Below, one piece after another: positions 4,356-37,625 of a DNA stretch of 38,621 nucleotides. The stretch's first letter is position 1, and each line of letters begins with the position of its first letter. Both the position numbers and the translations under genes were made by a program. Location: IMG/VR virus record IMGVR_UViG_2851955134_000002. One strand, written 5' to 3'. The stretch comes from a virus (lineage: Duplodnaviria > Heunggongvirae > Uroviricota > Caudoviricetes). The notes under the pieces are model-generated. The model was not told the origin of the DNA, ran no database searches, and was given only the letters and a program-made list of their open reading frames with translations.

Positions 4356-4677
4356 GAAACCAGAACATGCACACACAAAAAAACCGCTTGCCATGCCGCA
4401 ATCAGTCAGGTTACATTTCCGCTGCACCTCACAAAACGGGTGCCGGGTTTCGCAGCCTGCTGACTACACAAGCGCACAACCGCGCCAGCGGTTTTTTTGT
4501 GCGTACTGTATTGCCACGTTTTTTTCGCGTCAGAATTATGGCGGGGCGTACGGGGCCGACTTCGGTCGGGCCGGGTTCTTGTGTAGCCGGTACTGCGAAC
4601 CTCGTACGTCTCGCCACCCACAGTTTCGCAGCTCTGGATGGTGAGTTTTCACAACTTACTACACAAGGGGCCACACC

Positions 4678-9559: not shown

Positions 9560-9937
9560 CATCAGGGCGTATTCGCCCTGCCACCAATCCCATAACATAA
9601 AGAACGGGGTGCAAATCACTATGCACCCCGTTCCAATACAAACCATCAGAAGATCTACACATCTTTCTCAAATGGCCAAGTAATCGAGCTGGTTCAGGAA
9701 TAAGCATGCTGCCAACACAAGTGAAGGAGATAAAACTGTAGAACTGATCAATCGTTGGAAACAAGTATTGACAATATGTTCGAGTAACCCAACTGGATAG
9801 ATTTTATGCTGATTATCCATACAGTAAAAAAGTGAGGATACTCTTTGAATAACGCCAGCAAGAGTGGTAACATTAGGCACTGATTTTCATCAATGCAGTT
9901 ACCAGCTTACACAAGCTTATGTTTTATTGGGGGTTTT

Positions 9938-16477: not shown

Positions 16478-16530
16478 CTCCTGTCATACAGGCTACACGC
16501 GCACGTCCCGTCTGTATTCACACCGCACTT

Positions 16531-16548
16531 TGTCGCAACACTCCGACA
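16531..16548 (+). promoter_or_regulatory. Candidate Ogr-type late-activator site (TGT-N12-ACA) in the P/O divergent promoter region
   Basis: TGTcgcaacactccgACA fits the TGT-N12-ACA dyad recalled for P2 late promoters; it lies about 77 bp upstream of the O start. Confidence 0.4.
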
Positions 16549-16616
16549 ACACCACCGCGTTGAGCGCGGGCCACAGGGCGCGTCATCATGAGCACAACGA
16601 TATTCGAGGAGGCCGT

Positions 16617-17486
16617 ATGGCAGACAAGAAACCTGAACGAAAAAAATTCCGCGTGGCCGTTTCCGGTACGACCTCAGACGGGCGCGAAATCTGTGGCGAT
16701 ATGCTGAAAGCTGCCGCTGCCAGTTATGACCCGTCCGTCTACGGTGCACGTGTGAACGTGGAGCACATCCTTTCACCGCATCCGGACAGCGCCTTCGCGG
16801 CGATGGGGGATGTGGTGGCACTGAGCGCAGAGAACATCACTGACGGGCCGCTGGCGGGGCGCACGGCGCTGTATGCCGAAATTGAACCGACTGAGCGCAT
16901 GAAAAAACTGCTGGATGACGGCAAAAAGATTTATGCCAGCGTCGAGCTTTACCCGCAGTCATTCATCACGGGCGGTCCGTATCTTCAGGGACTGGCGATG
17001 ACCGACACCCCGGCAAGTCTTGGCACTGAGCGTCTGCAGTTTGCCGCACAACAGCGCGCGCAGGTGATGGCGTTTAACAATCAGCAGTGCGAGCCGCCGC
17101 TGTTCACCGATGCCATTGAGGCTGAAATTATCGCCCTGAACCAGCGCCAGAACGACGAAGGCGTTCAGTGGTTCGCGCGTGTCATGAACCTTATCAGCGG
17201 CGGGCGTAAAACGGACAGCGAACAGTTCAGCCAGATGCGTGATGTCGTTGAGCGCGTGGCCTCTGCGCACGCTGACCTGCTTGACCGTTTCAACGCACAG
17301 GAACGCCAGCGCGACGAAGACCGCGCACAAGTCACCCGCCTGACCCGCGAACTGACCACGCTGCGTACACAGTTGCAGGCACAGGACGGCGACCCGCATC
17401 AGCGCTTCTCCGCAACGGGCACTGACGCACCTGCTCACCCTGGCGTAACCGGCGGCGGTATTGCTTACACCGCCTGTGATTTCTGA
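16617..17486 (+). CDS. O: Capsid scaffold protein (P2 gpO-like)
   Basis: Start taken at the ATG with AGGAGG RBS (MADKKPERKKFRV...), giving 289 aa, close to P2 O; the track ORF extends upstream on a non-ATG codon. Confidence 0.8.
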   Translation: MADKKPERKKFRVAVSGTTSDGREICGDMLKAAAASYDPSVYGARVNVEHILSPHPDSAFAAMGDVVALSAENITDGPLAGRTALYAEIEPTERMKKLLDDGKKIYASVELYPQSFITGGPYLQGLAMTDTPASLGTERLQFAAQQRAQVMAFNNQQCEPPLFTDAIEAEIIALNQRQNDEGVQWFARVMNLISGGRKTDSEQFSQMRDVVERVASAHADLLDRFNAQERQRDEDRAQVTRLTRELTTLRTQLQAQDGDPHQRFSATGTDAPAHPGVTGGGIAYTACDF

Positions 17487-24527: not shown

Positions 24528-25296
24528 GCCATCACTTCTTCCCCCTTCAGCCAGCGATTTCATGCGCTGCGTGGAGCGGGGAACAAGCCGGTTGTCAGCA
24601 CTGCCTGTCAGCGTTAACCAGCTCTGGGATCCTGACACCTGCCCGGTGGCCCTGCTGCCTTATCTGGCGTGGGCGCTGTCCGTGGACAGGTGGGATCGTG
24701 ACTGGACGGAAGAAACAAAGCGCCAGGTGATCCGTGATGCCTGGGCTATCCACCGCCATAAGGGAACCATCAGCGCCATCCGGCGTGTGGTTGAACCCTT
24801 TGGCTATGTCATTAACGTGACGGAGTGGTGGCAGAACGGCGACCCGCGCGGCACCTTCCGCATTGATATTGGTGTGCAGAATGCGGGTATCACAGAGGAA
24901 ACGTACTCCGAGCTGACACGACTGATCGACGATGCCCGTCCGGTCAGCCGCCACCTTGCCTCGCTGAACATTATGCTGGATGCACAGGGAGTCGCACGTG
25001 TGTTTTCCGGCATGCACGACGGCAGTGAAACAACAATCTGGCCAGCCGCTTCTGCCGGTGTTGAGACTGTTTCGGTGTTCAGGGCATCCCCGGTTTTCTT
25101 TGACGGCGACATGCTCACCATTTACCCGCCGACACCGTCGGTATCTGTCGATGCGGGGATTGCCATGGGATTACGGGTTACGGGCGATGATGCGGTGACC
25201 GTGGAGCCACAGGCGGTGATGCAGATAACCACCACAACCGGAACCCTGACGGCATCAGTGGTATTTCTGGAGGATTCTTTGAGGATTTTTTCATGA
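24520..25296 (+). CDS. I: Baseplate/tail protein (P2 gpI position)
   Basis: Start taken at the internal ATG (MSEPSLLPP...) overlapping the J stop. Confidence 0.7.
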   Translation: MSEPSLLPPSASDFMRCVERGTSRLSALPVSVNQLWDPDTCPVALLPYLAWALSVDRWDRDWTEETKRQVIRDAWAIHRHKGTISAIRRVVEPFGYVINVTEWWQNGDPRGTFRIDIGVQNAGITEETYSELTRLIDDARPVSRHLASLNIMLDAQGVARVFSGMHDGSETTIWPAASAGVETVSVFRASPVFFDGDMLTIYPPTPSVSVDAGIAMGLRVTGDDAVTVEPQAVMQITTTTGTLTASVVFLEDSLRIFS

Positions 25297-27080
25297 CTGT
25301 AAAATATTTTTCTGTTCTGACTGACAAAGGCGCAGCCCGTCTGGCAAGGGCGGTTGCCAGCGGCTCGAAAATATCCATCACCACCATGAAACTGGGGGAT
25401 GGCGGCGGCAGTCTGCCGGAACCGGCTGCTTCCATGGAAAACCTGGTGAACACGGTATACAGTGCCCCACTGAATCAACTGAGCGTCAGCGCGTCCGATG
25501 CCAGCCAGCTTGTCGCCGAGATGATTATCCCGGAGGATAAAGGGGGGTTCTGGATCCGCGAGATTGGGCTTTTTGACAGCGACGGCGTGATGATTGCCGT
25601 GGCGAACTGCCCCGAAACCTACAAGCCCGTACTCGCCGAGGGAAGCGGGCGCACGCAGACAATTCGCATGATTGTTGTGGTTTCCAGTGCTTCATCCGTC
25701 GAGCTGAAAGTTGATCCCTCTGTCGTGCTCGCCACCCGCGCCTATGTTGAAGAATATGTTGCACAGGAAAAGGACTCTGTACCGCCGCTGCCTGATGTAT
25801 GGATACCGTTTAACGATTCACTGGATATGCTTACGGGGTTCGCTCCGGGCTATAAAAAAATCACCATTGGTGATGATGTGGTTCAGGTTGCCAGTGATAA
25901 ACAGGTTAGTTTCACGCGCGCATCAACGGCAACCTATATCAATAAATCTGGTGAACTGAAAACGGCGGAAATTAATGAGCCGCGATTTGAGCGCGAAGGT
26001 CTGCTGATTGAGGGGCAAAGAACAAACTACATGCTGAATTCGGAAACTCCGGCCAGCTGGGGCAAGTCAGTAAGTATGGATGTGCCCGAAACCGGGACAG
26101 ATAGTTTTGGGTTTACTTATGGGAAGTTTGTCTGCAAGGATTCCATCATAGGGCAAACCTCGGCCATTAATATGGCATCAGTTGCTGCAACAGACGCGGT
26201 TGATGTTTCAGGCGATAATAAGTACGTGACAACCTCGTGCCGTTTCAAAACAGAACGACAGGTAAGATTGCGCATCAGGTTTGACAGGTATGATGGTAGT
26301 ACAACAGATTTTCTTGGCGATGTGTACATTGATGCGCAATCGCTTGAAGTAAATATGACAGGCGGTGCTTCTGGCAGAATTACGGCACGAGTCAGAAAGG
26401 ATAAGATGACAGGCTGGATTTTTGCTGAGGCAACAATTGAGGCAATTGATGGTGAGTTAAAAGTAGGCTCTCAGATACAGTACTCCCCCAGGCAGGGTGA
26501 GGGAACGGTATCTGGCGACTATATTTATCTGTCCACCCCACAAGTCGAAAACGGACCGTGTGCGTCATCATTTATTATTTCAGGGGCCAGCGCAACGACA
26601 AGAGCCAGTGATTTGGTTAGTATTCCCACTAAAAATAACCTGTATTCGCTTCCATTTAGTTTTTTAGTTGAAGTCCATAAAGAATGGGATGTTGCGCCAA
26701 ATGCAGCCCCTCGCGTGTGGGATATAGCGGCAGCCAATACCGGGCAATCAGCAATCGCAGCAATCAACGGAAGTGGCGGTAAGTTATATATGAGTCTGTC
26801 AGACCCCTCAGGAACATATGTTAATAGTGCGGCGGCAGATGTATTTGCACAAAATGCCACGTTTGGATGTATTGCAAAATCTGATGGTAAGTTTCATGTA
26901 GTGACGAATGGTGAAGCGGTTAGTGAAGTTTATTGTGAATATAATGGTGTGACCGCTGATAAGAATATCCGATTTGGAGGGCAGACAAATACTGGAGAAC
27001 GACATCTGTTTGGTCACATTCGTAATTTCCGTATATGGCACAAAGAATTAAATGACAGGCAATTAAGAGAGACCGTATGA
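25293..27080 (+). CDS. H: Tail fibre protein (P2 gpH-like) with divergent AT-rich C-terminal domain
   Basis: Conserved-looking N-terminus (MTVKYFSVLTDKGAARLARA...ITTMKLGDGGG) typical of P2-family fibres; composition turns visibly AT-rich from about 25800 onward. Confidence 0.8.
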   Translation: MTVKYFSVLTDKGAARLARAVASGSKISITTMKLGDGGGSLPEPAASMENLVNTVYSAPLNQLSVSASDASQLVAEMIIPEDKGGFWIREIGLFDSDGVMIAVANCPETYKPVLAEGSGRTQTIRMIVVVSSASSVELKVDPSVVLATRAYVEEYVAQEKDSVPPLPDVWIPFNDSLDMLTGFAPGYKKITIGDDVVQVASDKQVSFTRASTATYINKSGELKTAEINEPRFEREGLLIEGQRTNYMLNSETPASWGKSVSMDVPETGTDSFGFTYGKFVCKDSIIGQTSAINMASVAATDAVDVSGDNKYVTTSCRFKTERQVRLRIRFDRYDGSTTDFLGDVYIDAQSLEVNMTGGASGRITARVRKDKMTGWIFAEATIEAIDGELKVGSQIQYSPRQGEGTVSGDYIYLSTPQVENGPCASSFIISGASATTRASDLVSIPTKNNLYSLPFSFLVEVHKEWDVAPNAAPRVWDIAAANTGQSAIAAINGSGGKLYMSLSDPSGTYVNSAAADVFAQNATFGCIAKSDGKFHVVTNGEAVSEVYCEYNGVTADKNIRFGGQTNTGERHLFGHIRNFRIWHKELNDRQLRETV

Positions 27081-27355
27081 AAGATTTGACTTTGAAGTTT
27101 CATGACAAACAGCAGTTTAAAGCCCTCCTGTCATCTCTTTGCTGGGAGGAAAATGAAGACCTCCAGAACAAACTGTTAGTTGATGAAATTGGTTTCACCT
27201 ATACAGAAACAGGGGAAAATGAAGAGGGAGAACCTGTATGTATCCGGAATGACGGTTATTTTGTCAACGTTCGTATCCTTGATGACTCGTTTGATGTTTC
27301 TGTGTTCTCTGATTATGTGGTGGAGCTGGAAACACCGCTTCGGGAATGGAGCTGA
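27077..27355 (+). CDS. Small acidic protein after the tail fibre gene; possibly a fibre assembly chaperone
   Basis: 92 aa, ATGA overlap with H; AT-rich; no resemblance to P2 G as I recall it, so the function is a guess from position. Confidence 0.3.
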   Translation: MKDLTLKFHDKQQFKALLSSLCWEENEDLQNKLLVDEIGFTYTETGENEEGEPVCIRNDGYFVNVRILDDSFDVSVFSDYVVELETPLREWS

Positions 27356-27367
27356 AGGGAGAAAATA

Positions 27368-27661
27368 ATGGATATAAGCCCCTTGCTTCATGCACTTTGT
27401 GCTGTGGCTGCGCAGCTTCTGGCTGGGCTTTTCACCGGAAACTGGGCTTATGGTGCGGTAGCTGGCTGTACGTTCTTCATTGCACGTGAACACACCCAGG
27501 CAGAATATCGCTGGATTGAAAAATTCGGGAAAGGGAAACGAATTAACATGCCATGGTGGGGTGGTTTTGATCCGCGCGTGTGGGATGCCGGAAGCCTGAT
27601 GGATTTTGCTGTACCGGTGGCAACATGCCTGTTCTTCTGGCTGTCGGTTAGTTACTGGTGA
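27368..27661 (+). CDS. Small membrane protein (two hydrophobic segments), candidate moron
   Basis: 97 aa with an AGGGAG RBS; hydrophobic N- and C-terminal segments around a WWGGFDP motif; followed by a 13-bp-stem hairpin at 27666-27702. Confidence 0.4.
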   Translation: MDISPLLHALCAVAAQLLAGLFTGNWAYGAVAGCTFFIAREHTQAEYRWIEKFGKGKRINMPWWGGFDPRVWDAGSLMDFAVPVATCLFFWLSVSYW

Positions 27662-27734
27662 AATCACGCCACCACCTCGTTATCTGTATGAGGTGGTGGC
27701 GTCAGGTTAAGGGAATGCGTTCAACGACGACGAT

Positions 27735-27839
27735 TTGTCTTTAAGCGTATTCAGTGATTCCCCACACAGATGCAGGCTGAAGTTTCTCCCACATATCCTC
27801 ATCACACCATTGAAAGCCTGCAGGAAACTCAATTCTTTC
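27735..27839 (-). pseudogene. Decayed 3' fragment of a gpU-like tail gene
   Basis: About 105 bp aligning by eye at roughly 80% identity with the 3' end of the intact U gene (28518-28620), same orientation; the reading frame is broken. Confidence 0.6.
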
Positions 27840-28160
27840 AGGCAAGCTTCAGAAAATTATAAATTTCAACAGATACAATTAAAATGATTTACAACGAAAT
27901 CCCCTGCTGCCGGAGGCAAAAGAGGGGATCAGCATCTGGCAATCTGAGTTGTTGCCTGGCACTATCAGTGATGAATACAGATGAAGCCTGGCTGCGTGGA
28001 TTGAATACATTAAAGAACTTCAGCAGGTGACTTTCACTTCCGTGAAGGACAAAGATTATTACAATGCGCTGGTATGGCCTGAATCGCCATCAAAGGGGGT
28101 TTTACAGAAGGCATAATATATTTATAATCCCGCAGCGTTATACACATGCAAACATTCTTT

Positions 28161-28186
28161 GCCCGCCCCGTGCGGGCTTTTTTTTT
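28161..28186 (+). terminator. Rho-independent terminator in the AT-rich intergenic block
   Basis: GCCCGC-CCCGT-GCGGGC hairpin followed by nine T. Confidence 0.55.
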
Positions 28187-28349
28187 ACCACAAAGATACA
28201 GTAACAGACAAAATTGTAATCAGAGCAACAAAATCGCAGGAAACATTTTCATCGATGACGATAATAATTAAAAATATTGTTTCAATAACGCCAACCCAAT
28301 ATAATCCCTTCCGGAACATAGAACTTTAAATCTTCACACAATGCATGTT

Positions 28350-28372
28350 GCCCTCTTTATGAGGGCTTTTTT
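28350..28372 (+). terminator. Rho-independent terminator in the AT-rich intergenic block
   Basis: GCCCTC-TTTAT-GAGGGC hairpin followed by TTTTTT. Confidence 0.5.
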
Positions 28373-28495
28373 ATTTCCCGAATATCACCATTGCCTTCAT
28401 CGGGCGATTTATATATAGTGAGAATGTATTGACAACATTTGCTTTTCTTCCATAACGGGTATAAGGGAGTGTTTTTTACACTCCCTTCTTTTTAT

Positions 28496-28954
28496 TCAGA
28501 ATGCCGCTGTCGCCATTTTGTCTTTAAGCGTGTTCAGTAATTCACCCGCAGAAGCTGACTGAAGTTTCTCCCTCATATCCTCATCACACCGCTGAAAACT
28601 GACAGAAAACTCAATCTTTTTTGCCTTTCCGTAACGATCCAGTTCGGAGCGGGTGGTCTGTAATCCCGTAATCACGTACATTCCGTAAATCTGCCCCGTG
28701 CCATCAATCAGCGGCCAGGGACATCCGGTGTAGGCCTGAGTGTTCAGTAGTGTCAGTGACACCTCACCGCCGGTAATTTCGGGATACAACATGCCGGACA
28801 GCGTGATCTGATCATCACCTGCACCAATATACTGCCAGGCCGCAGAGCGGTTAATGCGCTCATTTTTCACATGTCGCCATGTTTTGCTCTGCTGGATCTG
28901 CTGATGCGGCAGTGTCTTCAGTTCAAACACAAACATGCCAAAAATCATCATCAT
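28496..28954 (-). CDS. U: Tail protein U (P2 gpU-like)
   Basis: Start at the MMM triplet (MMMIFGMFVFEL...) with an AAGGAG RBS, as at the N-terminus of P2 U; the track ORF begins on an upstream GTG. Confidence 0.8.
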   Translation of the reverse strand: MMMIFGMFVFELKTLPHQQIQQSKTWRHVKNERINRSAAWQYIGAGDDQITLSGMLYPEITGGEVSLTLLNTQAYTGCPWPLIDGTGQIYGMYVITGLQTTRSELDRYGKAKKIEFSVSFQRCDEDMREKLQSASAGELLNTLKDKMATAAF

Positions 28955-28967
28955 AATTGCGTCTCCT

Positions 28968-31900
28968 TTAGTCCCTGTCACGGAAGCTGTTCATGCCTGT
29001 ACGCGCCTGTCTGCGCATCTCTTCGCGGACAGCCTCACCAACCAGTGTTGCCAGTTCACGCGGATTCTGTGTGTTGACGTTGTGCAGATGCACATGTATC
29101 TCACCGGAAAATGCCGCAGCCTGCGTTTGTGGCGCGGTTTCTTTTTTGACGGACTCCGGTCGCAGCGGTGGACGGATAACCTCCGCAACAGGAACAGATA
29201 AAGCCACATCTCCACCCGGGCCGTTTACAGCCTCACGCACGCGCTGAATACCGGCAACCAGCTCTGCATTTGCCTCGTTGTGCTGCGGCTGTGACAGCGT
29301 GGACACCTGACGGGCCACGCTCACCACTGGCGCAGGCACATTCACTGCCGGCATCAGAACGTTAACCACGGGGGAAGGCAAAGCACCCTCTCCACCCGGA
29401 CTGTTCACCGCCTCATGCACACGCTGAATACCGGCAACCAGTTCTGCATTTGCCTCGTTGTGCTGCGGCTGTGACAGCGTGGACACCTGACGGGCCACGC
29501 TCACCACTGGCGCAGGCACATTCACTGCCGGCATCAGAACGTTAACCACGGGGGAAGGCAAAGCCCCCTCTCCACCCGAACTGTTCACCGCCTCATGCAC
29601 ACGCTGAATACCGGCAACCAGTTCTGTATTTTCCTCGTTGTGCTGCGGCTGTGACAGCGTGGACACCTGACGGGCCACGCTCACCACTGGCGCAGGCACA
29701 TTCACTGCCGGCATCAGAACGTTAACCACGGGGGAAGGCAAAGCACCCTCTCCACCCGGACTGTTCACCGCCTCATGCACACGCTGAATACCGGCAACCA
29801 GCTCTGCATTTGCCTCGTTGTGCTGCGGCTGTGACAGCGTGGACACCTGACGGGCCACGCTCACCACTGGCGCAGGCACATTCACTGCCGGCATCAGAAC
29901 GTTAACCACGGGGGAAGGCAAAGCCCCCTCTCCACCCGAACTGTTCACCGCCTCATGCACACGCTGAATACCGGCAACCAGTTCTGTATTTTCCTCGTTG
30001 TGCTGCGGCTGTGACAGCGTGGACACCTGACGGGCCACGCTCACCACTGGCGCAGGCACATTCACTGCCGGCATCAGAACGTTAACCACGGGGGAAGGCA
30101 AAGCACCCTCTCCACCCGGACTGTTCACCGCCTCATGCACACGCTGAATACCGGCAACCAGTTCTGCATTTGCCTCGTTGTGCTGCGGCTGTGACAGCGT
30201 GGACACCTGACGGGCCACACTCACCACTGGCGCAGGAATATTCACGGCCGGAACGGGTGAAACAGTCTGTCTTCCGGTGAGTTTCTGCCAGAGCGTTGTC
30301 AGCGCATCCGCCACTCCTCCGCCCGCCGATACCGCCTGCACTGTCCGGATAACCTGCGGCGCTTTCCACTCGCCGTGAATGATTTCGGGCGCTGGCAGAT
30401 TTTTGAAAACAATATCGCCGGGGCCAGTACGTTTTTTGGTTTCCTCAAGAAGCCCGCCTGTATTGCTGGCGGTTTTCTGTATCCCCTGCCGGAACCATGC
30501 CTCATCCAGCGGGGATTTGCTGCCGGGTTTGCCGACCGGATTGTCCGCCGTTCCCCTCACCTCTCCGGGAACAGCAGGGGCAGGTTTATTGTCACCGTTG
30601 TTTTCCGCTGCATCTGATGACCACGACCATGTTTTCTGCACCATTTTTTTCTGTGCAGGATCCCACTCCCACACAACCGGCGCTTTTTGTGTGGCCTGTT
30701 TTGCGGCACTCTCCTGGAGTTTTTGTGTCTCCTTCTGTGCCTCTTTGATGCCGTCCGGGATGACACCCAGCCACTTCAGCACGGTACCGAGACCATCAAG
30801 GAGCAGCGTCAGCGGCCCCAGCACAATGTTCTGAATGACCCACCCCAGCGTTTTGCCGAACGACTCCCCGGCACTGGTGCATTTGTCGAGCGTCTCTTTT
30901 GAGGCGTTCGCAGGTTCAAGCAGGCGGGTGAACCACTCCCACACAGCTTTAATGCCGTCGCCAATCAGCCCGAACACCGGAGCCAGCGATGCAAAGGCTT
31001 CCCGCAGCGGTTGCAGCGCCTCCCACACTCCGGCAAAAAAGCCGGAAAAAAACGCGCTGATCTGATCCCAGCATCTCCACACCAGAACCGCGCCGCCCAC
31101 CAGGGCGGCAACAATCAGCCCGACCGGGCTGAACAGCGCCCCCAGTGCGCCCCCCAGTACCGACACCGCCCCTGTGACCAGTCCCCACAGGGAAGACAAT
31201 CCCGTCAGGCGCAGCGCCAGCGCGGACACAAGCCGGACAGCCCCACCAATGCCACCGCCCCCCGTCAGCAGCCCCAGCCCCAGTTGCAGTTTTGCCAGTG
31301 GCCCCGCAATCAGCCCGAGCGTCAGTGACAGCGCACCGAATGTGGAAGACAGCGCCAGAACACTCCCGCCCGCCAGTACCAGCACCCTGACCAGCGCCTG
31401 ATGCTCACCGACCCATTCGCGCATCCGGCTCACCCACGCGCTCACCGTCTGAACCAGACCGCGCAAATCCTCCGTCACTGTACCGAAGATGTCCGTGCGT
31501 AGCCCTGAGAACGCGCCACTCAGCGCCTGAACATCGCCGGAAAGATTACCGCGCAGCGTCTGCCCCATGCGGTCTGCCACGCCGCTGACATCACCCAGGT
31601 TGTCACGGACATCGGCCAGCGCCTTTAAGAACTGCGGGATCTGGTCAACGGAGAGGTCTTCAACGGGTGTGCCGAACAGCGCAATGGCCGTGTTCGCCCG
31701 CTCTGCCGGGTCACGGATGGCCAGCAGTGCACGGGCGGTCACCTGCATCGCCTGACGTGCGTTGCTGCCCCCCTGTGCAATGGCAGCAGACACCCGTTCG
31801 GCATTCAGGCCGAGTGTCTCATACGCTGAGACACTGGATTTCGACATATCCGAACCCCGGATGCTGAACTCCTTCACGGCATCGCCGGTTTTATCCAGCG

Positions 31901-33011
31901 CAAACTTGCCCTGCTTCGCCATCTCAACCAGCAGGCTCATTGTCTCGCTGCCGGTGAAGCCCATGTTGCGGAAGTGGGTGGAATACTCATGCAGAATTTC
32001 CGGCAGTTCATCGCGCATTTCAGCGGACATGCGCTGCATCCCTGCCGTCATCAGGTTGGTGGCCTCGTCACTGCTGGCGGCCAGCCCGTTCTTCATCATG
32101 ATGGCTGCAGCCTGAATGCTCTGCGGCACATCAACACCAAAGACGGTCCGCATGTCCAGCGCGCGACGACTGATGCGCTCCAGTTCCCGGTCGCCGGTGT
32201 CGCCCAGCGCACCGAGCGTGCTGCGTACCGCACTCACGGCCTCCGCAGCACCGGCAAAATCAGCGAGACCGTCAGCCTGTATGTTACGGATGATGTGAGT
32301 GTAACGTGCGCCATCCTCTGCGCCTTCCCCCGAACCGGCTGCGATAACCGCGCCGTGCTGTTCGAATTCCATCGCCGGAGCCATCATGCGCTGCGCCGCA
32401 TACAGGCCACCTGTACCCGCCGCCATCGCCACAGCCCCTGTGTTGCGCAGTTTTTCCGCCTGAGCCTTCGCGGCCTCATAGCGGTTCTGTGCCTGCGTCA
32501 CGCGAGCCAGCACCTGCCGTTCGCGCTCGAGCTGCTCGTTGTACTGCTGTGTGCGGCGAACGGCACTTTCGATGGTCCGGCTGCTACCGGAAAGCAGAAT
32601 GCCGTGTCTGCGCATTTCCCCTGCCGCCGCCTGAAGTTTTTCGCGTTCGCGCGTGCGCAGCTCGTTCAGGCGCTCAAGACGTGCAGACAGCGCCGTCATC
32701 ATCTCCCGCTGCTTTTCAGAGAGGGTGTTGCCGTCCTGCTCTGCCTTTCGCAGCCCGGCGAGCCTCTGCTCCGCGCGGGCAATCTGTTCGCGATATTTAC
32801 TGAGATTTCCGGCGGCACGATCGAACACCTTCGACTGCCTGTCGAGCGCCTGTATGTTGTTCTGCGTCTTCTGAAGGGATTCAGTGAGAGCGCCCACCTG
32901 ACGGCGGGCGTTTTCGGTCGGGCGTGTCAGCCGGTCGATTGCGCCAAAGCTGACACGAATATCAAGGGATTTCACTGTTGCGGACTCCGCTGCGTTGCGC
33001 CGCCCGCTCAC
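28968..33011 (-). CDS. T: Tail tape-measure protein (P2 gpT-like), expanded by tandem repeats
   Basis: 1347 aa between E and U; coiled-coil N-terminal part, glycine-rich TM-like central segments and six tandem 60-aa repeats near the C-terminus; GTG start. Confidence 0.85.
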   Translation of the reverse strand: MSGRRNAAESATVKSLDIRVSFGAIDRLTRPTENARRQVGALTESLQKTQNNIQALDRQSKVFDRAAGNLSKYREQIARAEQRLAGLRKAEQDGNTLSEKQREMMTALSARLERLNELRTREREKLQAAAGEMRRHGILLSGSSRTIESAVRRTQQYNEQLERERQVLARVTQAQNRYEAAKAQAEKLRNTGAVAMAAGTGGLYAAQRMMAPAMEFEQHGAVIAAGSGEGAEDGARYTHIIRNIQADGLADFAGAAEAVSAVRSTLGALGDTGDRELERISRRALDMRTVFGVDVPQSIQAAAIMMKNGLAASSDEATNLMTAGMQRMSAEMRDELPEILHEYSTHFRNMGFTGSETMSLLVEMAKQGKFALDKTGDAVKEFSIRGSDMSKSSVSAYETLGLNAERVSAAIAQGGSNARQAMQVTARALLAIRDPAERANTAIALFGTPVEDLSVDQIPQFLKALADVRDNLGDVSGVADRMGQTLRGNLSGDVQALSGAFSGLRTDIFGTVTEDLRGLVQTVSAWVSRMREWVGEHQALVRVLVLAGGSVLALSSTFGALSLTLGLIAGPLAKLQLGLGLLTGGGGIGGAVRLVSALALRLTGLSSLWGLVTGAVSVLGGALGALFSPVGLIVAALVGGAVLVWRCWDQISAFFSGFFAGVWEALQPLREAFASLAPVFGLIGDGIKAVWEWFTRLLEPANASKETLDKCTSAGESFGKTLGWVIQNIVLGPLTLLLDGLGTVLKWLGVIPDGIKEAQKETQKLQESAAKQATQKAPVVWEWDPAQKKMVQKTWSWSSDAAENNGDNKPAPAVPGEVRGTADNPVGKPGSKSPLDEAWFRQGIQKTASNTGGLLEETKKRTGPGDIVFKNLPAPEIIHGEWKAPQVIRTVQAVSAGGGVADALTTLWQKLTGRQTVSPVPAVNIPAPVVSVARQVSTLSQPQHNEANAELVAGIQRVHEAVNSPGGEGALPSPVVNVLMPAVNVPAPVVSVARQVSTLSQPQHNEENTELVAGIQRVHEAVNSSGGEGALPSPVVNVLMPAVNVPAPVVSVARQVSTLSQPQHNEANAELVAGIQRVHEAVNSPGGEGALPSPVVNVLMPAVNVPAPVVSVARQVSTLSQPQHNEENTELVAGIQRVHEAVNSSGGEGALPSPVVNVLMPAVNVPAPVVSVARQVSTLSQPQHNEANAELVAGIQRVHEAVNSPGGEGALPSPVVNVLMPAVNVPAPVVSVARQVSTLSQPQHNEANAELVAGIQRVREAVNGPGGDVALSVPVAEVIRPPLRPESVKKETAPQTQAAAFSGEIHVHLHNVNTQNPRELATLVGEAVREEMRRQARTGMNSFRDRD
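29211..30235 (-). repeat. In-frame tandem repeat inside the tape-measure gene: about 5.7 copies of a 180-bp unit
   Basis: Units at 29341, 29521, 29701, 29881 and 30061 are nearly identical and alternate between two variants (protein NEANAELV...NSPGGEG versus NEENTELV...NSSGGEG), so the true unit is 360 bp in about three copies. Confidence 0.9.
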
Positions 33012-33542
33012 GCCAGCTCATCACCTCGACGAGAGGCATTGAGAATATCTCGCCGGGCGACCAGTTAAACACGACTGCTATATCAGCGACCAGTTCTTCA
33101 ACGTTGTCGAACTTCGCCAGCGTGATTACGCTTCCATCACCGCCACGGACGGTTTCGCAGACTCCGTGGGAGCAAAAAAATTCGCAGCCATAGTCGCCAG
33201 CGCCACGAAATCACCGGTGGACAGTGACTGAATTTCTGCCAGTTTCAGGCGTGGTGCGGTCACGCGCGAAAGCAGCGTCATCATCGGGTCCGTTTTGAGG
33301 TTCAGCACCTCAATCAGCGACAGCCCGCGCAACGAGCCTGCCTGACGGATTTCCTCGCCAATCTCCACGTAGTCAATAACGCGTTCGCCACGCACCACCG
33401 GGCAGGATAACTTCACCCCCGTTTTTTCCTCTGCGGCTTCTGCGTTATCCGCAGTGTTTTCCTCTGCCACATCGATGTTTTCAGTGGTGGTGTCACCTGC
33501 GACGATTTCGCTGTTCATGATGTCATCTTTCTTTGCTGCCAT
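32962..33542 (-). CDS. E: Tail assembly chaperone E with predicted -1 frameshift extension E' (slippery T TTT TTT at 33172-33180)
   Basis: The E ORF (33126-33542) ends soon after a TTTTTTT run; the -1 frame is open from that site to a stop at 32962-32964, overlapping the T start, as in P2 E/E'. Confidence 0.6.
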
Positions 33543-33587
33543 TTTCTTTCTCCTGTGGCGGCACGGCGTGCCGCCCTGTTAATACTG

Positions 33588-34103
33588 TCAGTTCAGACCG
33601 AGCGCCGAACTCACGCGGTCACCAAAGACGTTCTGGCCGTCTTTTTTGTAGATGAAGTTCAGCAGGTCGATTTCTGTCACATCGCTGTCATCCACCGACT
33701 CCTTGTAGTAGGTGTTTTTGACGGCGAAGGTGTACTGTGTGGTGTCGCCCTGTTTGGTTTCGCCACGGTCGATTTCCGTGATGCGTCCGCGCATCTCCAC
33801 CTCAAGGAGCTGACTTTCCTCACCATCGGTGAACAGCTCACCCACAAAGCGCAGCGCCACTTCGTTAATGTCAGTGGCGTATTCCTGGAGCAACTCTTTT
33901 TCAACACCGCCGGTGGTGAATGAGGCATCCAGTGCGCTGTCATCCAGTCCGAGGTCAATATGCACCGCACCCAGCATCCCGCCACCGCGATAGGCTTCGG
34001 TTTTTCGGGTCAGTTTAGGCAGAGTGACGCCTGTCACCGTGCCGATTTTGTTTTTGCCGTTCACAAACAGCGTGAACTGGCGAACGTAACGTGGTACAGC
34101 CAT
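33588..34103 (-). CDS. FII: Tail tube protein (P2 gpFII-like)
   Basis: 171 aa, ATG start directly after the sheath gene stop; size and position match P2 FII. Confidence 0.85.
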   Translation of the reverse strand: MAVPRYVRQFTLFVNGKNKIGTVTGVTLPKLTRKTEAYRGGGMLGAVHIDLGLDDSALDASFTTGGVEKELLQEYATDINEVALRFVGELFTDGEESQLLEVEMRGRITEIDRGETKQGDTTQYTFAVKNTYYKESVDDSDVTEIDLLNFIYKKDGQNVFGDRVSSALGLN

Positions 34104-35285
34104 TTACGCACCTCCCAGCGTTGCAAAAGCGGAGTCGAAATACTCATCCGTGAAGGTCTGGTACAGCGTCAGGTCTTCCATCGGCGGCACTGGTGTGTAC
34201 TTGTAGCGGATACGCACGCGCCCCTGACGTAAATCCGTCGTGCCGTTGTCCAGCACGTCATACCAGCACTCCGCACCGATAAGTTTTCCGGCGGTGACCA
34301 GGGCATTGAGTTTTGCGCGGATGGCGCTAATCACGTCCTTCACGTTCGCCGGGGTCAGCGGTTCGTCAATGGTTTCGAACTGTGCTTCGGCGATGGTATC
34401 TGCCAGAATCTGCGCTGTGCGCGTGTACACCTCAAAGATGTAGTCGCTGGTTTCGGCGGTACGGTTCCCCCAGAAGCGGAAGCCGTTACGGCGAATAATC
34501 GTGGTGATTTCCTTGTTGTTCAGGTTGTTCGCATCACTGTCTTCGGCCTGCAACGACCAGAACACCTGCTGCGACATACCGAGCACATTTTTCAGCGCCA
34601 CGTTGGACAGTGACTTATGCCAGCCCTGCTCACTGTCAATCCGCGCACGCAACCCGCACGCATACGCCGCTGCCGGAAACGTTTCGTTATTTCCGCTCAC
34701 CGGGTTGTAGGCAATGAAGTCAGGCCACAGCAGCATCAGCTCACGCGCGGAGAACTTAGCGCGGTAAGTGATTGCCTCCGCCATCGTGTCACAGCCGTTA
34801 CATCCGGCGTACACAAAGGCGCGGAGCTTGTCCGCAATGACGCACAGGGCAGATGTGACAGCTTCGGTATCAAGGCCGGGAGCCGCCAGAATACGCGGGC
34901 GGTAACCAATGCTCTCATCCTGTTCGGCAACCAGCAGGGCATACATGCCCGTGTAGCTGCCGTCAGCCTGCGAGCCACCAATAACAAGCTGATCCTGTGT
35001 CTCACCTTCCTCTCCGGCTTCTGCCACACGCACCACGATAACCTTCGGGCTGGTCTGGTCGGAAATCGCCTTGAGCGTTTTGTACAGCGTGCCTGTTGTG
35101 CCTGCCTTACCCAACACATTCGCCACGCGGGTGATCAGTACGGGCTTGTTTAACGGGAACGCGTCGCTGTCTGCATCGTCCGCCGTGGCCACGATACCGA
35201 TGACACTGGAATCAATGTCATTAATCGCGGTCACGAGGTCGGTGTTTTCTTTGACGCGTGCGCCGTGAAAGCGTGTTTCACTCAT
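34104..35285 (-). CDS. FI: Tail sheath protein (P2 gpFI-like)
   Basis: 393 aa from the ATG with AGGAGG RBS; the TADDAD..FPLNKPVLIT N-terminal region resembles P2 FI as I recall it. Confidence 0.9.
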   Translation of the reverse strand: MSETRFHGARVKENTDLVTAINDIDSSVIGIVATADDADSDAFPLNKPVLITRVANVLGKAGTTGTLYKTLKAISDQTSPKVIVVRVAEAGEEGETQDQLVIGGSQADGSYTGMYALLVAEQDESIGYRPRILAAPGLDTEAVTSALCVIADKLRAFVYAGCNGCDTMAEAITYRAKFSARELMLLWPDFIAYNPVSGNNETFPAAAYACGLRARIDSEQGWHKSLSNVALKNVLGMSQQVFWSLQAEDSDANNLNNKEITTIIRRNGFRFWGNRTAETSDYIFEVYTRTAQILADTIAEAQFETIDEPLTPANVKDVISAIRAKLNALVTAGKLIGAECWYDVLDNGTTDLRQGRVRIRYKYTPVPPMEDLTLYQTFTDEYFDSAFATLGGA

Positions 35286-35446
35286 GAGCACCTCCTGGTG
35301 TTATTTGTGGTGCTATCCTCCCGAAAAACGCCACGACATTCACGCGCCGCCCCTTCTCGCCGCTCTCCTACAACATGCGCGGCTCGCGGTGTATTTCGCG
35401 TGTGTGGAATGATTTGCAGGACGAAGACACAGACGGAGAAAGCGGG

Positions 35447-36580
35447 ATGAACCTTTCGGGCATTAACGGATACCTCGCCGGGCTGGCAGAGTGCGTGAAG
35501 ATACCGGATTTTTCCGTCACAACTGACAACGCGGAAACCGGAAAAAAAGAGGAAAACGAGGCGTTAACCCGACGGGTCATCTCGCTGGCAATGACCGACA
35601 ACCGGGGATTTGAAGCAGACCAGTTAACCCTCACGATTGACGACAGCGACGGCGGCGTGCGTCTCCCGAAGCGCGGGCAGAAGCTGGGGCTGGCGCTGGG
35701 CTGGAAAGGTGAGGCACTGACGGACAAGGGAGCCTTCATCGTTGACGAGGTGACACACGAGGGACCGCCGGACAGACTCACCATTACGGCCAGCAGCGCA
35801 GACTTCCGCCAGGAGTTCAACGTGAAGCGTGAAGTGTCCTGGCATGACGTGACGGTGGGACAGGTTGTTTCTGCCATCGCGTACCGCTACGGGCTGAAAG
35901 CGCAAATCAGCGCCTCACTGGCAGGGGTGGAAATCGACCACGCCGACCAGACGGAGGAAAGCGACATCTCCTTCCTCACGCGCATGGCGGACATGCTGGG
36001 AGCAATCGCCACCGTCAAGAACGGCGCACTGCTTTTCATCGTGCCCGGACATGGGGTGAGCGCCAGCGGACAGCCGATGCCCTCATTCGCCATCACCCGC
36101 AGCAGCGGTGACAGCCATCACTTCCGCATTGCAGACCGGCAGGCGTACACGGGGGTACGCGCTTACTGGCTGGACCTGGACTATGGCAAAAAGAAAAAAG
36201 TCAGCGTGAAGAAACGTGGTTCTGCCCAAAAAACAAAAAAGGAGAAAAGCAGCAGCCGCGAGGGGGATTACATGGAGGGCGCAGACGGCAATGTGTACGT
36301 CATGCGCAAAACCTTCAAAAACGAGGAGGCTGCACGCCGTGCGGCGGCGGCAAAGTGGCAGCAGTTACAGCGCGGTGCGGCTGAGTTCTCCATCACACTG
36401 GCACGCGGTCGCCCCGACCTGTACCCCGAAATGCGCGGCACGGTATCCGGTTTCAAGAGCGACATCGACGCGGAAGACTGGGTGCTGGCGAAGGTGGAGC
36501 ACAACATCGACGACAGCGGCTTCACCACGCGGCTTGAGCTGGAATTAAAAATTCCTGAATGGATAGCACAACAGGAATAA
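35447..36580 (+). CDS. D: Tail protein D (P2 gpD-like, late control gene D family)
   Basis: Start at MNLSGINGYLAG (ATG with GGAG upstream); directly precedes ogr as in P2. Confidence 0.8.
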   Translation: MNLSGINGYLAGLAECVKIPDFSVTTDNAETGKKEENEALTRRVISLAMTDNRGFEADQLTLTIDDSDGGVRLPKRGQKLGLALGWKGEALTDKGAFIVDEVTHEGPPDRLTITASSADFRQEFNVKREVSWHDVTVGQVVSAIAYRYGLKAQISASLAGVEIDHADQTEESDISFLTRMADMLGAIATVKNGALLFIVPGHGVSASGQPMPSFAITRSSGDSHHFRIADRQAYTGVRAYWLDLDYGKKKKVSVKKRGSAQKTKKEKSSSREGDYMEGADGNVYVMRKTFKNEEAARRAAAAKWQQLQRGAAEFSITLARGRPDLYPEMRGTVSGFKSDIDAEDWVLAKVEHNIDDSGFTTRLELELKIPEWIAQQE

Positions 36581-36630: not shown

Positions 36631-36888
36631 GTGTCTTTTCCGTGTCCTTTTTGTGGTGCGAGCACACGCACCCGCACCAGTCGCGCAGCGAACGATACCG
36701 GAACTGTCCGCTGGAAACTCTGCCAGTGCAACAACCCGGAATGCAGTCTCTCCTTCTCGACGCTGGAGAGTTTCGACAAAATCACTGTTAAACGTTATGG
36801 CAGCACTTCACAGGATATTCCGTGGCAAAGCCTGCCTGCGTCTCACCGGGGTGATGCGCAGTTGTCACTGCCGTTTCCGGTAATGTGA
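36631..36888 (+). CDS. ogr: Ogr/Delta-family zinc-finger late transcription activator
   Basis: GTG start 8 nt after AAGGAGG; CPFCG...(22 aa)...CQCNNPEC four-cysteine arrangement typical of Ogr. Confidence 0.75.
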   Translation: MSFPCPFCGASTRTRTSRAANDTGTVRWKLCQCNNPECSLSFSTLESFDKITVKRYGSTSQDIPWQSLPASHRGDAQLSLPFPVM

Positions 36889-37104
36889 TCGCCTGTATCT
36901 GTTTTTGACCCTGGAATTTTATTTGGAGAATTAACTCAGAAAACGGTAAATTACGCGCGGGTGCCTTTCGGCTGATGGTCGGAGGGAATACCCGAAAGCC
37001 GGATGTGGAAAGGCCCCGGAAAACATCTCTGTTTAACCGAGGCCCTAACCGTCTACCCTAAGCAAGTGACAGGTTAGCGCCTCTCCGAAAAAGGAGCAAG
37101 CGCT

Positions 37105-37245
37105 ATGTCGCAAAAATCGCTTACGGCCATCACGTTCTGCGTGACGGCAATCCTCATCATCTGGATGCTGCACGGTTCGCTGTGCGAAATACGGATGAGC
37201 TTCTGGGGAGCGGAATTTGCGGCGTTCTTACAGTGTAAGCAGTAA
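37105..37245 (+). CDS. hok: Hok/Gef-family type I toxin (46 aa)
   Basis: MSQKSLTAITFCVTAILIIWMLHGSLCEIRMSFWGAEFAAFLQCKQ: TM helix, then the SLCEI and AAFL-CK motifs of Hok/HokA; AAGGAG RBS 8 nt upstream; an 8-bp-stem hairpin follows the stop (37265-37286). Confidence 0.7.
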   Translation: MSQKSLTAITFCVTAILIIWMLHGSLCEIRMSFWGAEFAAFLQCKQ

Positions 37246-37331
37246 GGAAACCGCGACGGGGGAGCAATCCCCCGTCAATCGGTTGCCAGGGTAAGGTCGA
37301 CAAGGCACCCTATCTCACAGATATGAACAAA

Positions 37332-37363
37332 CCCGCAGCGTAAAAACTGCGGGTTTTCTTTTT
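37332..37363 (+). terminator. Rho-independent terminator downstream of the hok-like gene
   Basis: CCCGCAG-N8-CTGCGGG hairpin followed by TTTTCTTTTT. Confidence 0.55.
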
Positions 37364-37440
37364 GGCACCCTCACACGTAAGGGCACCATACACAAGACAA
37401 AGCCCGCAAAATTTGCGGGCTTACTCTACATCTCGAAAAT

Positions 37441-37459
37441 GTGGTCACTGCGTGGACAC
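37441..37459. repeat. attR core: right copy of the 19-bp direct repeat (gtggtcactgcgtggacac)
   Basis: Matches 11-29 at 18 of 19 positions; located after ogr/hok and before the gene outside the prophage. Confidence 0.7.
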
Positions 37460-37625
37460 GCGATGATATAAATCCTTTTATATCAATAAATTAAATATTT
37501 ATTTTTTTCATCAACAAGGATTTTCACGTTTGTGTTACCTGTATGAGACGAGAGTTAACCGGACAAGTGTGCCATAATCTCGCGGCCAGGCATACTTGCG
37601 AAGATTTCAGGTATAAGGATACGTA

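Follow-up and report, generated by a model that had tools for sequence, protein, structure and literature searches.

Inherited P88-type tail gene order and a putative fiber-cassette exchange scar in a P2-like prophage of Escherichia coli

Does a tail gene block that runs opposite to its P2 counterpart record a rearrangement in the genome that carries it, or an order that this genome inherited? The question is raised by IMG/VR record IMGVR_UViG_2851955134_000002, whose whole 38,621-nucleotide stretch is referred to here as the window. Reference P2 carries H, G, FI, FII, E, T, U, D, and ogr on a single strand, and it is for this reason that the FI-U block of the window, which lies on the minus strand between the fiber genes and D, counts as inverted relative to P2. 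The preliminary description of this DNA had remarked on the divergence of FI-U from D and on a second, broken copy of the U 3′ end, and had proposed a module replacement or inversion by recombination at the U end or, alternatively, a misassembly across the tape measure repeats. Its account of the layout was accurate: gene identities and strands (Pfam, PHROG) place FI through U on the minus strand and leave D and ogr in their usual orientation, and the P2 reference gene order does have the block codirectional with H. The genes concerned are the following.

28496-28954, minus strand: U, intact gpU tail gene (Pfam PF06995 Phage_P2_GpU, E 3e-40; phrog_76)
28968-33011, minus strand: T, tape measure (phrog_28; longest ORF 1347 aa)
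~32961-33125, minus strand: E′ frameshift extension, downstream of E and overlapping the T start
33126-33542, minus strand: gpE tail chaperone (phrog_103; translation; RefSeq "GpE family" fragment in SWHEFF_58)
33588-34103, minus strand: FII tail tube (phrog_55; "major tail tube protein" annotation in SWHEFF_58)
34104-35286, minus strand: FI tail sheath (phrog_23, E 1e-126; ATG at 35286, AGGAGG just ahead)
35447-36580, plus strand: gpD tail/baseplate hub (phrog_52, E 5e-148; Pfam PF05954 Phage_GPD; RefSeq length 1134 nt)
36631-36888, plus strand: ogr/Delta-type zinc-finger late activator (CX2CX22CX4C in the translation; RefSeq annotation in SWHEFF_58)

The longest ORF at U extends to 28981, the RefSeq length in relatives being 459 nt, and the RefSeq-equivalent start of T lies at ~32975. 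Compared with the ST131 prophage, intact U has a dN of 0.02 and a dS of 0.25, and this dN/dS of ~0.08 indicates purifying selection. With gpU, gpD, FI, FII, E, T, and an Ogr-type zinc finger all present (Pfam PF06995 and PF05954; PHROG 23, 55, 103, 28, 76, and 52; CX2CX22CX4C), the tail module is of the P2-like (Peduoviridae) kind, and both the gene set and the order within the block are those of the P2 F operon (FI FII E E′ T U D, promoter pF). The overall order is not that of canonical P2 (Peduovirus), in which the block is codirectional with H/G and D and D comes last in the operon, whereas the window has FI-U on the minus strand and H and D on the plus strand.

The answer comes from synteny. 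In P88 (Xuanwuvirus), the tail fiber and tfa genes on the plus strand are followed by U, T, E′, E, FII, and FI on the minus strand and then by D on the plus strand, and the annotated order is the same in Reginaelenavirus 3LV2017, Senquatrovirus SEN5, and Novemvirus phiT5282H. These phages and the window have V-W-J-I-H-(tfa) rightward, U-T-E′-E-FII-FI leftward, and D-ogr rightward, and this order of rightward baseplate/fiber genes, leftward tail block, and rightward D and ogr is the inherited one in the P88-type branch. The window shares a fiber/tfa end convergent with U, combined with FI divergent from D, with phage isolates from four genera of Peduoviridae: P88, Klebsiella 3LV2017, Salmonella SEN4/5, and Enterobacter phiT5282H. 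The divergent FI/D junction is contiguous in P88, 500465-2, 503458, 520873, Chuche, and PhiR44_2, as well as in phiSM, phiT5282H, 3LV2017, the Kp48xx phages, and SEN4/5; one blast match place spans it in phages of E. coli, Citrobacter, Enterobacter, Klebsiella, and Salmonella. U and the adjoining spacer occur with P88-type order in 71 of 5426 complete E. coli genomes.

Because the same order recurs in four Peduoviridae genera and in 71 closed E. coli genomes, the P88-type order is, on these sequence comparisons, a stable and inherited lineage trait, and the block was not inverted in the window genome. The preliminary description had allowed that an order common to close relatives would make it such a trait; relatives do have it in common, and the inversion reading fails. 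Among P2-like phages (Peduoviridae), the window represents an E. coli prophage from the P88-type branch. The ICTV criterion for the genus Xuanwuvirus is at least ~70% nucleotide identity to P88 across the whole genome; in our alignment to P88 only FII-FI-D-ogr (~12% of a 12-kb query) aligns, at 75 to 79%, most of U and T being too diverged for megablast. The P88 FI/D region falls within this 75 to 79% range and has a conserved dyad in its control region. P88 differs in having an invertible fiber segment and a DNA invertase beside U, whereas the window has a lambdoid-type fiber cassette, a U fragment (U′), a dead G, and a 380-bp spacer. The window's tape measure is also ~400 aa longer than that of P88 because of 60-aa repeats: T holds 5.8 in-frame 180-nt (60-aa) tandem copies at 29200-30251 with 96% identity (TRF), and their number differs between close relatives.

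The finding is thus real but ordinary, the P88-type order being normal for a whole P2-like branch. At least four Peduoviridae genera have it as their standard layout; it is neither an event nor an assembly error, and the main value of this result is negative, since readers working from a P2 template will repeatedly flag the order as a rearrangement. The literature that we searched contains no explicit discussion of the P88-type inversion. We put at roughly 85% the joint explanation developed below, in which an inherited P88-type order is combined with a U′ scar left by fiber-cassette exchange and with a putative Ogr site shared by FI and D.

The features between the fiber gene and the spacer are as follows.

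25293-27080, plus strand: H tail fiber gene (PHROG matches split at aa ~160)
27077-27355, plus strand: orfA, small ORF accompanying the lambdoid fiber
27368-27661, plus strand: orfB, small ORF accompanying the lambdoid fiber
27667-27704, unstranded: strong hairpin closing the fiber cassette, flanked by the stop codons of orfB and U′
27709-27845, minus strand: U′, decayed gpU 3′ fragment (last ~35 codons with its own TAA at 27709-27711, one frameshift, no 5′ part)
27846-27891, plus strand: segment joining U′ to the G remnant (alignment with SCU-172)
27892-28116, plus strand: pseudogene, 3′ third of the old tail-fiber-assembly gene G/tfa (in-frame TGA at 27982-27984)

Horizontal transfer of tail fiber genes across unrelated phages, with P2 H/G set against the fibers of lambda, Mu, P1, and T-even phages, was reportedly described by Haggard-Ljungquist et al. 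in 1992. The window resembles such cases: the first ~160 aa of H form a P2-type baseplate-attachment domain, and from ~25779 a lambdoid side-tail-fiber-like C-terminal part follows, which with its accessory ORFs is 88% identical in nucleotide sequence (25779-27650) to stf regions of the lambdoid phages ev207, phage 21, and Perceval. GC content drops to ~45% in the lambdoid-like part of H and is 42 to 46% over 25.5 to 28.5 kb, compared with ~60% in the flanks. orfA and orfB match phrog_1361 and phrog_1443, with no match to a Pfam family, and are 87% identical to lambdoid phages, a similarity that ends at 27663. Since lambdoid homology stops ahead of the hairpin (fold −29.4 kcal/mol, z = −6.6; kept in SCU-172 with compensating changes), the hairpin and U′ would come from a P88-type context. 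As a candidate left-hand scar, we considered the neighboring gene I, which carries a 249-nt in-frame C-terminal extension (25048-25296) that had no homolog among the fetched loci outside the window's own lineage.

The broken U copy of the preliminary description proved genuine, both as a direct-repeat match within the window and by blastn against the U 3′ ends of relatives (E ~1e-20 to 1e-25). At 27734-27838, 650 bp from intact U, 105 nt repeat the U 3′ end in direct orientation, with ~83% identity and a frameshift. The copy consists of two directly repeated stretches, 27734-27763 against 28517-28546 (90% match) and 27767-27838 against 28549-28620 (82%), whose registers differ by a 1-nt indel. 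Its minus-strand translation reads ..RIEFPAGFQWCDEDMWEKLQPASV, then a frameshift, then GESLNTLKDKSSSLNAFP and a stop, and that of intact U ends in ..KIEFSVSFQRCDEDMREKLQSASAGELLNTLKDKMATAAF and a stop. U′ is oriented like U and retains a stop codon; 4 nt separate the fragment from the cassette hairpin, and by sequence it groups not with P88 U but with the short-C-terminus U type found in the window's E. coli sublineage. Its partial homology, broken frame, missing start, and intact paralog mark it as a pseudogene or recombination scar. The ~650 bp of AT-rich DNA reported between the two copies corresponds to 27846-28495, at ~42 to 43% GC versus 58 to 62% in the tail genes. What looks like an AT-rich spacer there opens with the decayed 3′ third of old G.

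That remnant is a G/Tfa pseudogene, with homology to intact Tfa that includes the C-terminal W..Y...L..V......WP..P region and with its N-terminal part lost. Window positions 27892-28113 correspond to aa 114 to 187 of the intact 187-aa G of L011, a metagenomic IMG/VR contig, at 84% identity (tblastn E 2e-39), and they also match aa 138 to 197 of phiT5282H TfaE (E 2e-12). The segment between U′ and the remnant (27846-27891) is probably the last ~40 nt of a displaced old H followed by the start of old G; it was shortened in the window by deletion between two ACAACGAAAT direct repeats, both of which are present in SCU-172. The U′/G junction recurs in SCU-172, TUM9803, SWHEFF_58, and the ST131 prophage with varying decay of G, which retains aa 54 to 187 in SCU-172 and only aa 138 to 184 in the ST131 prophage.

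A further comparison is with L011, which has H, an intact G, and the same spacer and U at 96.8% identity to the window, and in which U′ is missing. Because L011 joins H, G, a spacer of identical type, and U with nothing else between them, U′ is best read as a scar that illegitimate recombination left behind when two phages, both with the P88-type order beforehand, exchanged modules. U′ being a direct repeat of U and convergent with the fiber cassette, its source phage must already have carried U on the minus strand. Of the earlier proposal, module replacement at the U end is supported, and the link from U′ to an inversion is not.

In the exchange that we envisage, one partner would have carried the low-GC lambdoid-type cassette (H C-terminal part, orfA, orfB, and hairpin) with U directly convergent to it, and the other H, G, the 380-bp spacer, and a convergent U. 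The joint would have formed ~105 nt into the U of the first partner and ~40 nt ahead of the end of the second partner's H, leaving the product cassette, hairpin, U′, H tail, G, spacer, and intact U. The old chaperone gene G would then have decayed because the new fiber has no need of it, by stages that may be those seen today: near full length but broken in SCU-172, the last 74 codons with a stop in the window, and shorter still in ST131. The spacer and U of the window are nearer to those of L011, which has no scar, than to those of SCU-172 or ST131, which have it, so a scar of single origin needs later homologous exchange among prophages. Compared with classical fiber exchange, the window keeps a legible scar, namely, a piece of the partner's U and the decaying gene of the displaced chaperone. 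U′ and dead G would make a clean, datable case of fiber cassettes passing between lambdoid prophages and P2-like ones through two crossovers, one homologous and the other illegitimate, with successive stages of chaperone-gene decay kept in relatives.

An origin of U′ in place, either by a tandem duplication of the U 3′ end later split by insertion of G and the spacer or by an inserted element that supplied a replacement end, strikes us as improbable. U′ does have the same short-C-terminus subtype as the resident U, and the donor searches returned no external source: blastn against E. coli genomes gave no U more than 84% identical to U′, a 26-base exact pattern for the hairpin/U′ junction had 0 matches in contigs of one genome per species and in viral contigs matched only the two lineages known beforehand, and no extant phage came to light in which orfB and the hairpin are joined to an intact U. 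However, the interval between U′ and U holds old G and the native spacer, contiguous with H and U in L011, and no mobile element; U′ is joined to the terminator of a foreign cassette, and it is ~17% diverged from every U examined.

Still less probable is that U′ has been kept because it is useful, whether as a homology patch for fiber-cassette swaps with phages in which the cassette abuts U or as an antisense or regulatory element. Its persistence beside two different fiber cassettes, the window type and the ST131 type, would fit such a role, but U′ copies differ by ~30% between lineages, contain indels, and have no constrained core, unlike the neighboring block at 28330-28440 described below, and their decay looks neutral.

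We give very little credence to a recent inversion of FI-U in the window genome or its immediate ancestor, with U′ as the breakpoint scar. The order opposite to P2 and a broken U copy at one block boundary are what suggested it, but identical order and junction types are found in four phage genera from four host genera, L011 has the same orientation without U′, and the FI/D control region is conserved across genera. Moreover, U′ is a direct rather than an inverted repeat and has no partner at the FI/D boundary, and a repeat search of the window revealed no inverted-repeat pair above chance level linking the two block boundaries. The misassembly suggested earlier is the least credible account of all: a 180-nt repeat present in 5.8 copies that are 96% identical can confuse short-read assemblers, but these copies are tandem, direct, in frame, and entirely inside T, so that they may alter copy number and cannot flip the block. 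Independent closed genomes reproduce both block junctions at 97 to 99% identity, as do many others at lower identity, and the junctions also recur in the inducible, plaque-forming phages P88 and phiSM (PMC5285337, PMC6456863).

The inherited P88-type order has a consequence for expression: D needs its own promoter, because FI-U are on the opposite strand and cannot be cotranscribed with it. A candidate lies between the two start codons.

35287-35446, unstranded: 160-nt divergent FI/D control region containing TCT-N12-ACAAC (35355-35374), a conserved element of Ogr type

D is probably expressed from this conserved dyad at the FI/D midpoint. From the center of its TCT-N12-ACA core the distance is 77.5 nt to the FI ATG and 83.5 nt to the D ATG, a geometry that agrees with P2 pF, whose activator-site center is 83 nt from the FI ATG. 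P2 likewise has an Ogr-type zinc-finger activator and a TGT-N12-ACA-type site ~80 nt upstream of the FI ATG (PMC3931495); the late-promoter consensus and four P2 late promoters come from the same source, and an Ogr/Delta-dependent late promoter is defined by a TGT-N12-ACA dyad centered near −55 of a mapped late start. The FI/D region contains no perfect TGT-N12-ACA, only the one-mismatch version with a TCT half-site, which is conserved across genera: in an alignment of five phages from four genera, the T.T and ACAA columns are invariant and TCT/TGT-N12-ACAAC is conserved. A search of the window for Ogr-type patterns gave nonrepeat intergenic matches only in the P/O and FI/D regions, the former with a single perfect TGT-N12-ACA at its midpoint, an arrangement that a single Ogr site at the FI/D midpoint would mirror. 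This one dyad-like putative site probably activates both divergent late promoters. If so, a single symmetric Ogr site driving FI-U and D would explain the viability of the inverted order; such a shared bidirectional site would be cheap to test and a modest addition to P2-family biology.

Between the G remnant and U, the spacer contains the following predicted elements.

28101-28186, plus strand: sRNA-like unit 1 (−35 TTTACA, 16-nt spacer, −10 TATAAT, an 11/12 promoter match; ~50 nt; terminator)
28277-28372, plus strand: sRNA-like unit 2, paralog of unit 1 (−10 TATAAT+CCC, ~60 nt, terminator GCCCTC/GAGGGC, T6)
28330-28440, unstranded: constrained noncoding block (unit 2 body and terminator, unit 3 promoter)
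28391-28495, plus strand: sRNA-like unit 3 (TTGCCT, 17-nt spacer, TATAGT, hairpin 28463-28487, T run to the U stop codon)

The terminator of unit 1 (GCCCGC/GCGGGC followed by T9) doubles as the old H-G operon terminator, and the unit differs from the ST131 prophage at 7 of 73 positions. Repeat searches and alignments showed that units 1 and 2 share the core ACACA(A)TGCA. The hairpin of unit 3 is a convergent terminator shared with U (z = −3.1), and in TUM9803 its stem carries a compensatory G:C to C:G change. Block 28330-28440 has 2 differences in 111 positions, versus 31 in 138 in the adjacent 28191-28329 (Fisher p = 3e-7), and the pS of U is 0.21 in the same pairwise comparison; the block thus appears to evolve ~10 times more slowly than both the neighboring DNA and the synonymous sites of U. 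It is nearly invariant across 7 haplotypes, and the ORFs within it are not conserved.

Two small ORFs of the spacer were rejected as genes. A 44-aa hydrophobic ORF at 28319-28185 (minus strand) has no ATG left in either the ST131 or the SCU-172 type and meets a stop after 7 codons in L009. An extra T in L009 puts a 25-aa ORF at 28341-28418 out of frame, and the changes in this ORF are all nonsynonymous. A type I toxin-antitoxin reading of the spacer was rejected along with them.

Rfam scans (by E value over 27300-28700 and at gathering thresholds over the whole window) returned nothing credible in the spacer, and a literature search with its sequence gave only unrelated matches. An Hfq-type trans-acting sRNA would be a short transcript that is expressed from a promoter of its own and has a single-stranded seed and a rho-independent terminator; of the sequence signals, the spacer shows promoter-like and terminator motifs, folds, and conservation. 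It may encode two paralogous sRNAs of ~50 to 65 nt, bounded by sigma-70 promoters and terminators and sharing the core ACACA(A)UGCA, with a third unit convergent with U. That the 380-bp spacer is a conserved noncoding moron with such sRNAs and that a single symmetric Ogr site also drives FI-U and D is, taken together, a tentative proposal that we consider rather doubtful. If it is true, lysogens would express the predicted RNAs from the prophage, those with the widespread ST131 prophage among them, and these RNAs would fall outside every described RNA family. The constrained block with its sRNA-like units is the only mildly novel item at this locus; the putative units sit in a prophage carried by many ST131 isolates, would be inexpensive to test, and would be a modest gain for P2-family biology.

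In position, downstream of the fiber operon terminator, and in being AT rich with promoter-like and terminator signals of its own, the spacer resembles the place in P2 that fun(Z) occupies, a moron or variable site flanked by G and FI. Unlike that site, it has no protein gene and consists of short promoter-terminator units and a constrained noncoding block without an Rfam family. At the other end of the tail module, a hok/gef-type gene follows ogr in the window, as it does in P88 and the allied genera.

The window is a P2-like prophage in Escherichia coli: across 27300-29000 its identity is 99.4% to strain SWHEFF_58 and 96.8% to strain TUM9803, and its right flank holds a hok/gef gene followed by flk and yfcJ. 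Its layout, from left to right, is as follows.

(-), int and repressor
early genes and A
8.3-13.2 kb, AT-rich cargo
(-), Q and P
(+), O to H
28496-28954, (-), U (Pfam Phage_P2_GpU)
(-), T, E, FII and FI (PHROG assignments: tape measure, chaperone, tube and sheath)
35447-36580, (+), D (Pfam Phage_GPD)
36631-36888, (+), ogr (CX2CX22CX4C finger)

The P2 reference record places H, G, FI, FII, E, E', T, U, D and ogr on a single strand and puts fun(Z) in the gap separating G from FI. The FI-to-U block of the window is therefore inverted relative to P2, and gene identities, strands and the reference record all agree with the preliminary description on this point. That description went on to treat the order as an inversion tied to a broken second copy of the U 3' end (U'), while allowing that an order shared by relatives would mark a lineage trait. 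We ran the synteny comparison with related P2-like genomes that it proposed and found the shared order in P88, 3LV2017, SEN5 and phiT5282H. In P88 (Xuanwuvirus), the baseplate, fibre and tail-fibre-assembly (tfa) genes are on one strand and U, T, E', E, FII and FI on the other, followed by D. The annotated maps of Klebsiella phage 3LV2017 (Reginaelenavirus), Salmonella phage SEN5 (Senquatrovirus) and Enterobacter phage phiT5282H (Novemvirus) likewise have tfa and U convergent and FI and D divergent, as in the window. A query across the FI/D junction aligned as one place in E. coli phages P88, 500465-2, 503458, 520873, Chuche and PhiR44_2, as well as in phiT5282H, many Klebsiella phages, Salmonella SEN4/SEN5 and Citrobacter phiSM. 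Both P88 and phiSM can be induced and are infectious (PMC5285337, PMC6456863). Since a known phage group normally has its genes in this inverted order, the link between U' and an inversion is wrong. Our repeat search of the window returned no inverted repeats flanking the FI-U block. We also rejected a misassembly over the tape-measure repeats, since these are tandem, direct and in frame and cannot flip the block, and the block junctions were found again in independent closed genomes.

The second U end itself is real. Two stretches, 27734-27763 against 28517-28546 (90% match) and 27767-27838 against 28549-28620 (82%), form direct repeats with a 1-nt offset; the U' stretch matches U genes of relatives by blastn (E ~1e-20), and its minus-strand translation yields the ~35 C-terminal residues of gpU, broken by one frameshift and closed by a TAA of its own (27709-27711). 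The 650 bp separating U' from U is AT-rich, as had been described, at 42-43% GC. The features of this region are, from left to right:

~25779 to 27663, where lambdoid homology ends, imported fibre cassette (C-terminal part of H and the small ORFs orfA and orfB), 87-88% identical to lambdoid side-tail-fibre regions
27667-27704, very stable hairpin after the cassette
4 nt beyond the hairpin, U', convergent with the cassette
~45 nt, junction segment between U' and the G remnant
27892-28113, remnant of the old tfa gene G (residues 114-187 of a 187-aa tail-fibre-assembly protein)
28114-28116, G stop
28161-28186, terminator, then the remaining spacer and intact U

The G remnant has an in-frame TGA at 27982-27984 and matches the intact gene of L011, a metagenomic relative (an IMG/VR contig), at 84% identity (E 2e-39), and phiT5282H TfaE (E 2e-12).

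Relatives fix the history of this region. L011 carries H (1055 aa), intact G, and the spacer and U as in the window (96.8% identity to 27891-29100); U' is absent, and L011 represents the unscarred state. In SCU-172, U' is followed by a broken but nearly full-length G (residues 54-187), and the window, TUM9803 and SWHEFF_58 have additionally lost sequence by a deletion between two ACAACGAAAT repeats. In the ST131 prophage U' is more decayed, only residues 138-184 of G are left, and the adjoining fibre gene is a different one. The most economical history is a single illegitimate joint that brought together two phages, both already in P88-type order, one contributing cassette-hairpin-U and the other H-G-spacer-U. 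The redundant chaperone gene would then have decayed, and homologous exchange among these prophages would have continued after the joint. U' is the mark of a module exchange at the U end, as had been proposed, but not of an inversion. A present-day donor whose intact U matches U' was not found among E. coli genomes or in an exact-pattern scan of one genome per species.

At the other end of the fibre region, gene I stays open ~83 codons past the end of homology to P88/SEN5 gpI (25048-25296). This high-GC extension, for which the fetched loci outside this lineage offered no homologue, may be a left-hand scar of the fibre exchange. In SWHEFF_58, TUM9803 and SCU-172, NCBI's PGAP labels the gene a pseudogene 'missing C-terminus'.

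Part of the residual novelty lies in control of D, which in P2 closes the pF operon; the pF activator site there is centred 83 nt from the FI ATG. P2 late promoters have a common TGT-N12-ACA element (PMC3931495). In the window, 160 nt separate the FI ATG (35286) from the D ATG (35447), and a TCT-N12-ACAAC at 35355-35374 is kept in five phages from four genera, whose alignment shows no variation in the T.T and ACAA columns. Measured from the centre of its TCT-N12-ACA core, the FI ATG lies 77.5 nt away and the D ATG 83.5 nt. We infer that this one symmetric putative Ogr site serves both divergent promoters, and a shared late-activator site here is probable. In the divergent P/O region (ATGs 16466 and 16618), the single perfect TGT-N12-ACAAC lies at the midpoint. 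The FI/D (35287-35446) and P/O (16467-16617) control regions are both ~150-160 nt, each with one T(G/C)T-N12-ACAAC almost exactly midway, and these midpoint elements suggest bidirectional Ogr activation from one site.

A further lead is a constrained element in the spacer (28117-28495). Set against the ST131 prophage, the window gives pS 0.21 and pN 0.02 for U, and 28191-28329 differs at 31/138 sites (22%; neutral-like); 28330-28440 differs at just 2/111 (Fisher p = 3e-7), and its slow change holds in seven haplotypes. The spacer reads as three candidate units on the plus strand, in each of which a sigma-70-like promoter is followed by 50-70 nt and an intrinsic terminator; units 1 and 2 are paralogues of each other, and in TUM9803 the stem of the last hairpin carries a compensatory change. 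Small-ORF candidates in the spacer are not conserved, the spacer has no Rfam match, and its units are annotated in none of 71 E. coli genomes. Other genera have a different conserved non-coding block at the equivalent position. SEN5 (5803-6010 of its locus), phiT5282H (744-900) and 3LV2017 (5927-6060) have in common a tfa/U spacer sequence, ..GTATCGAGTA..TTTTTAACGGTGCTGCAGCACGGTCAGTTATGGC.., that shows no relationship to the E. coli spacer and likewise lacks an Rfam match.

Within T, a 180-nt (60-aa) repeat with ~96% identity between copies occurs 5.8 times, in frame, at 29200-30251. Close relatives differ in copy number: SWHEFF_58 has 4.8 copies, TUM9803 and SCU-172 have 2.8, and none was detectable in L011, the ST131 prophage or P88. 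T therefore spans ~935 to 1347 aa, and tail length may vary with it.

Elsewhere, a hok/gef-family toxin locus (36900-37600, from annotation in matching E. coli genomes) lies between ogr and host flk/yfcJ, and P88 has a MokW/hok-like gene at the equivalent position. Between A and Q, the cargo carries genes for an IetA-like AAA ATPase and an IetS-like S8 peptidase (9893-13221), an IetAS anti-phage or anti-plasmid defence pair at the P2 defence hotspot; phiT5282H has an AAA ATPase and S8 peptidase at the corresponding place. Directly downstream of A, inside this integrated prophage, is a ParM/StbA-type actin-like segregation protein (8284-9243; Pfam StbA_N and ParM C-terminal domain). The early region gave Rfam matches over the gathering threshold to isrK Hfq-binding RNA (4424-4498) and C4 antisense RNA (4534-4621).
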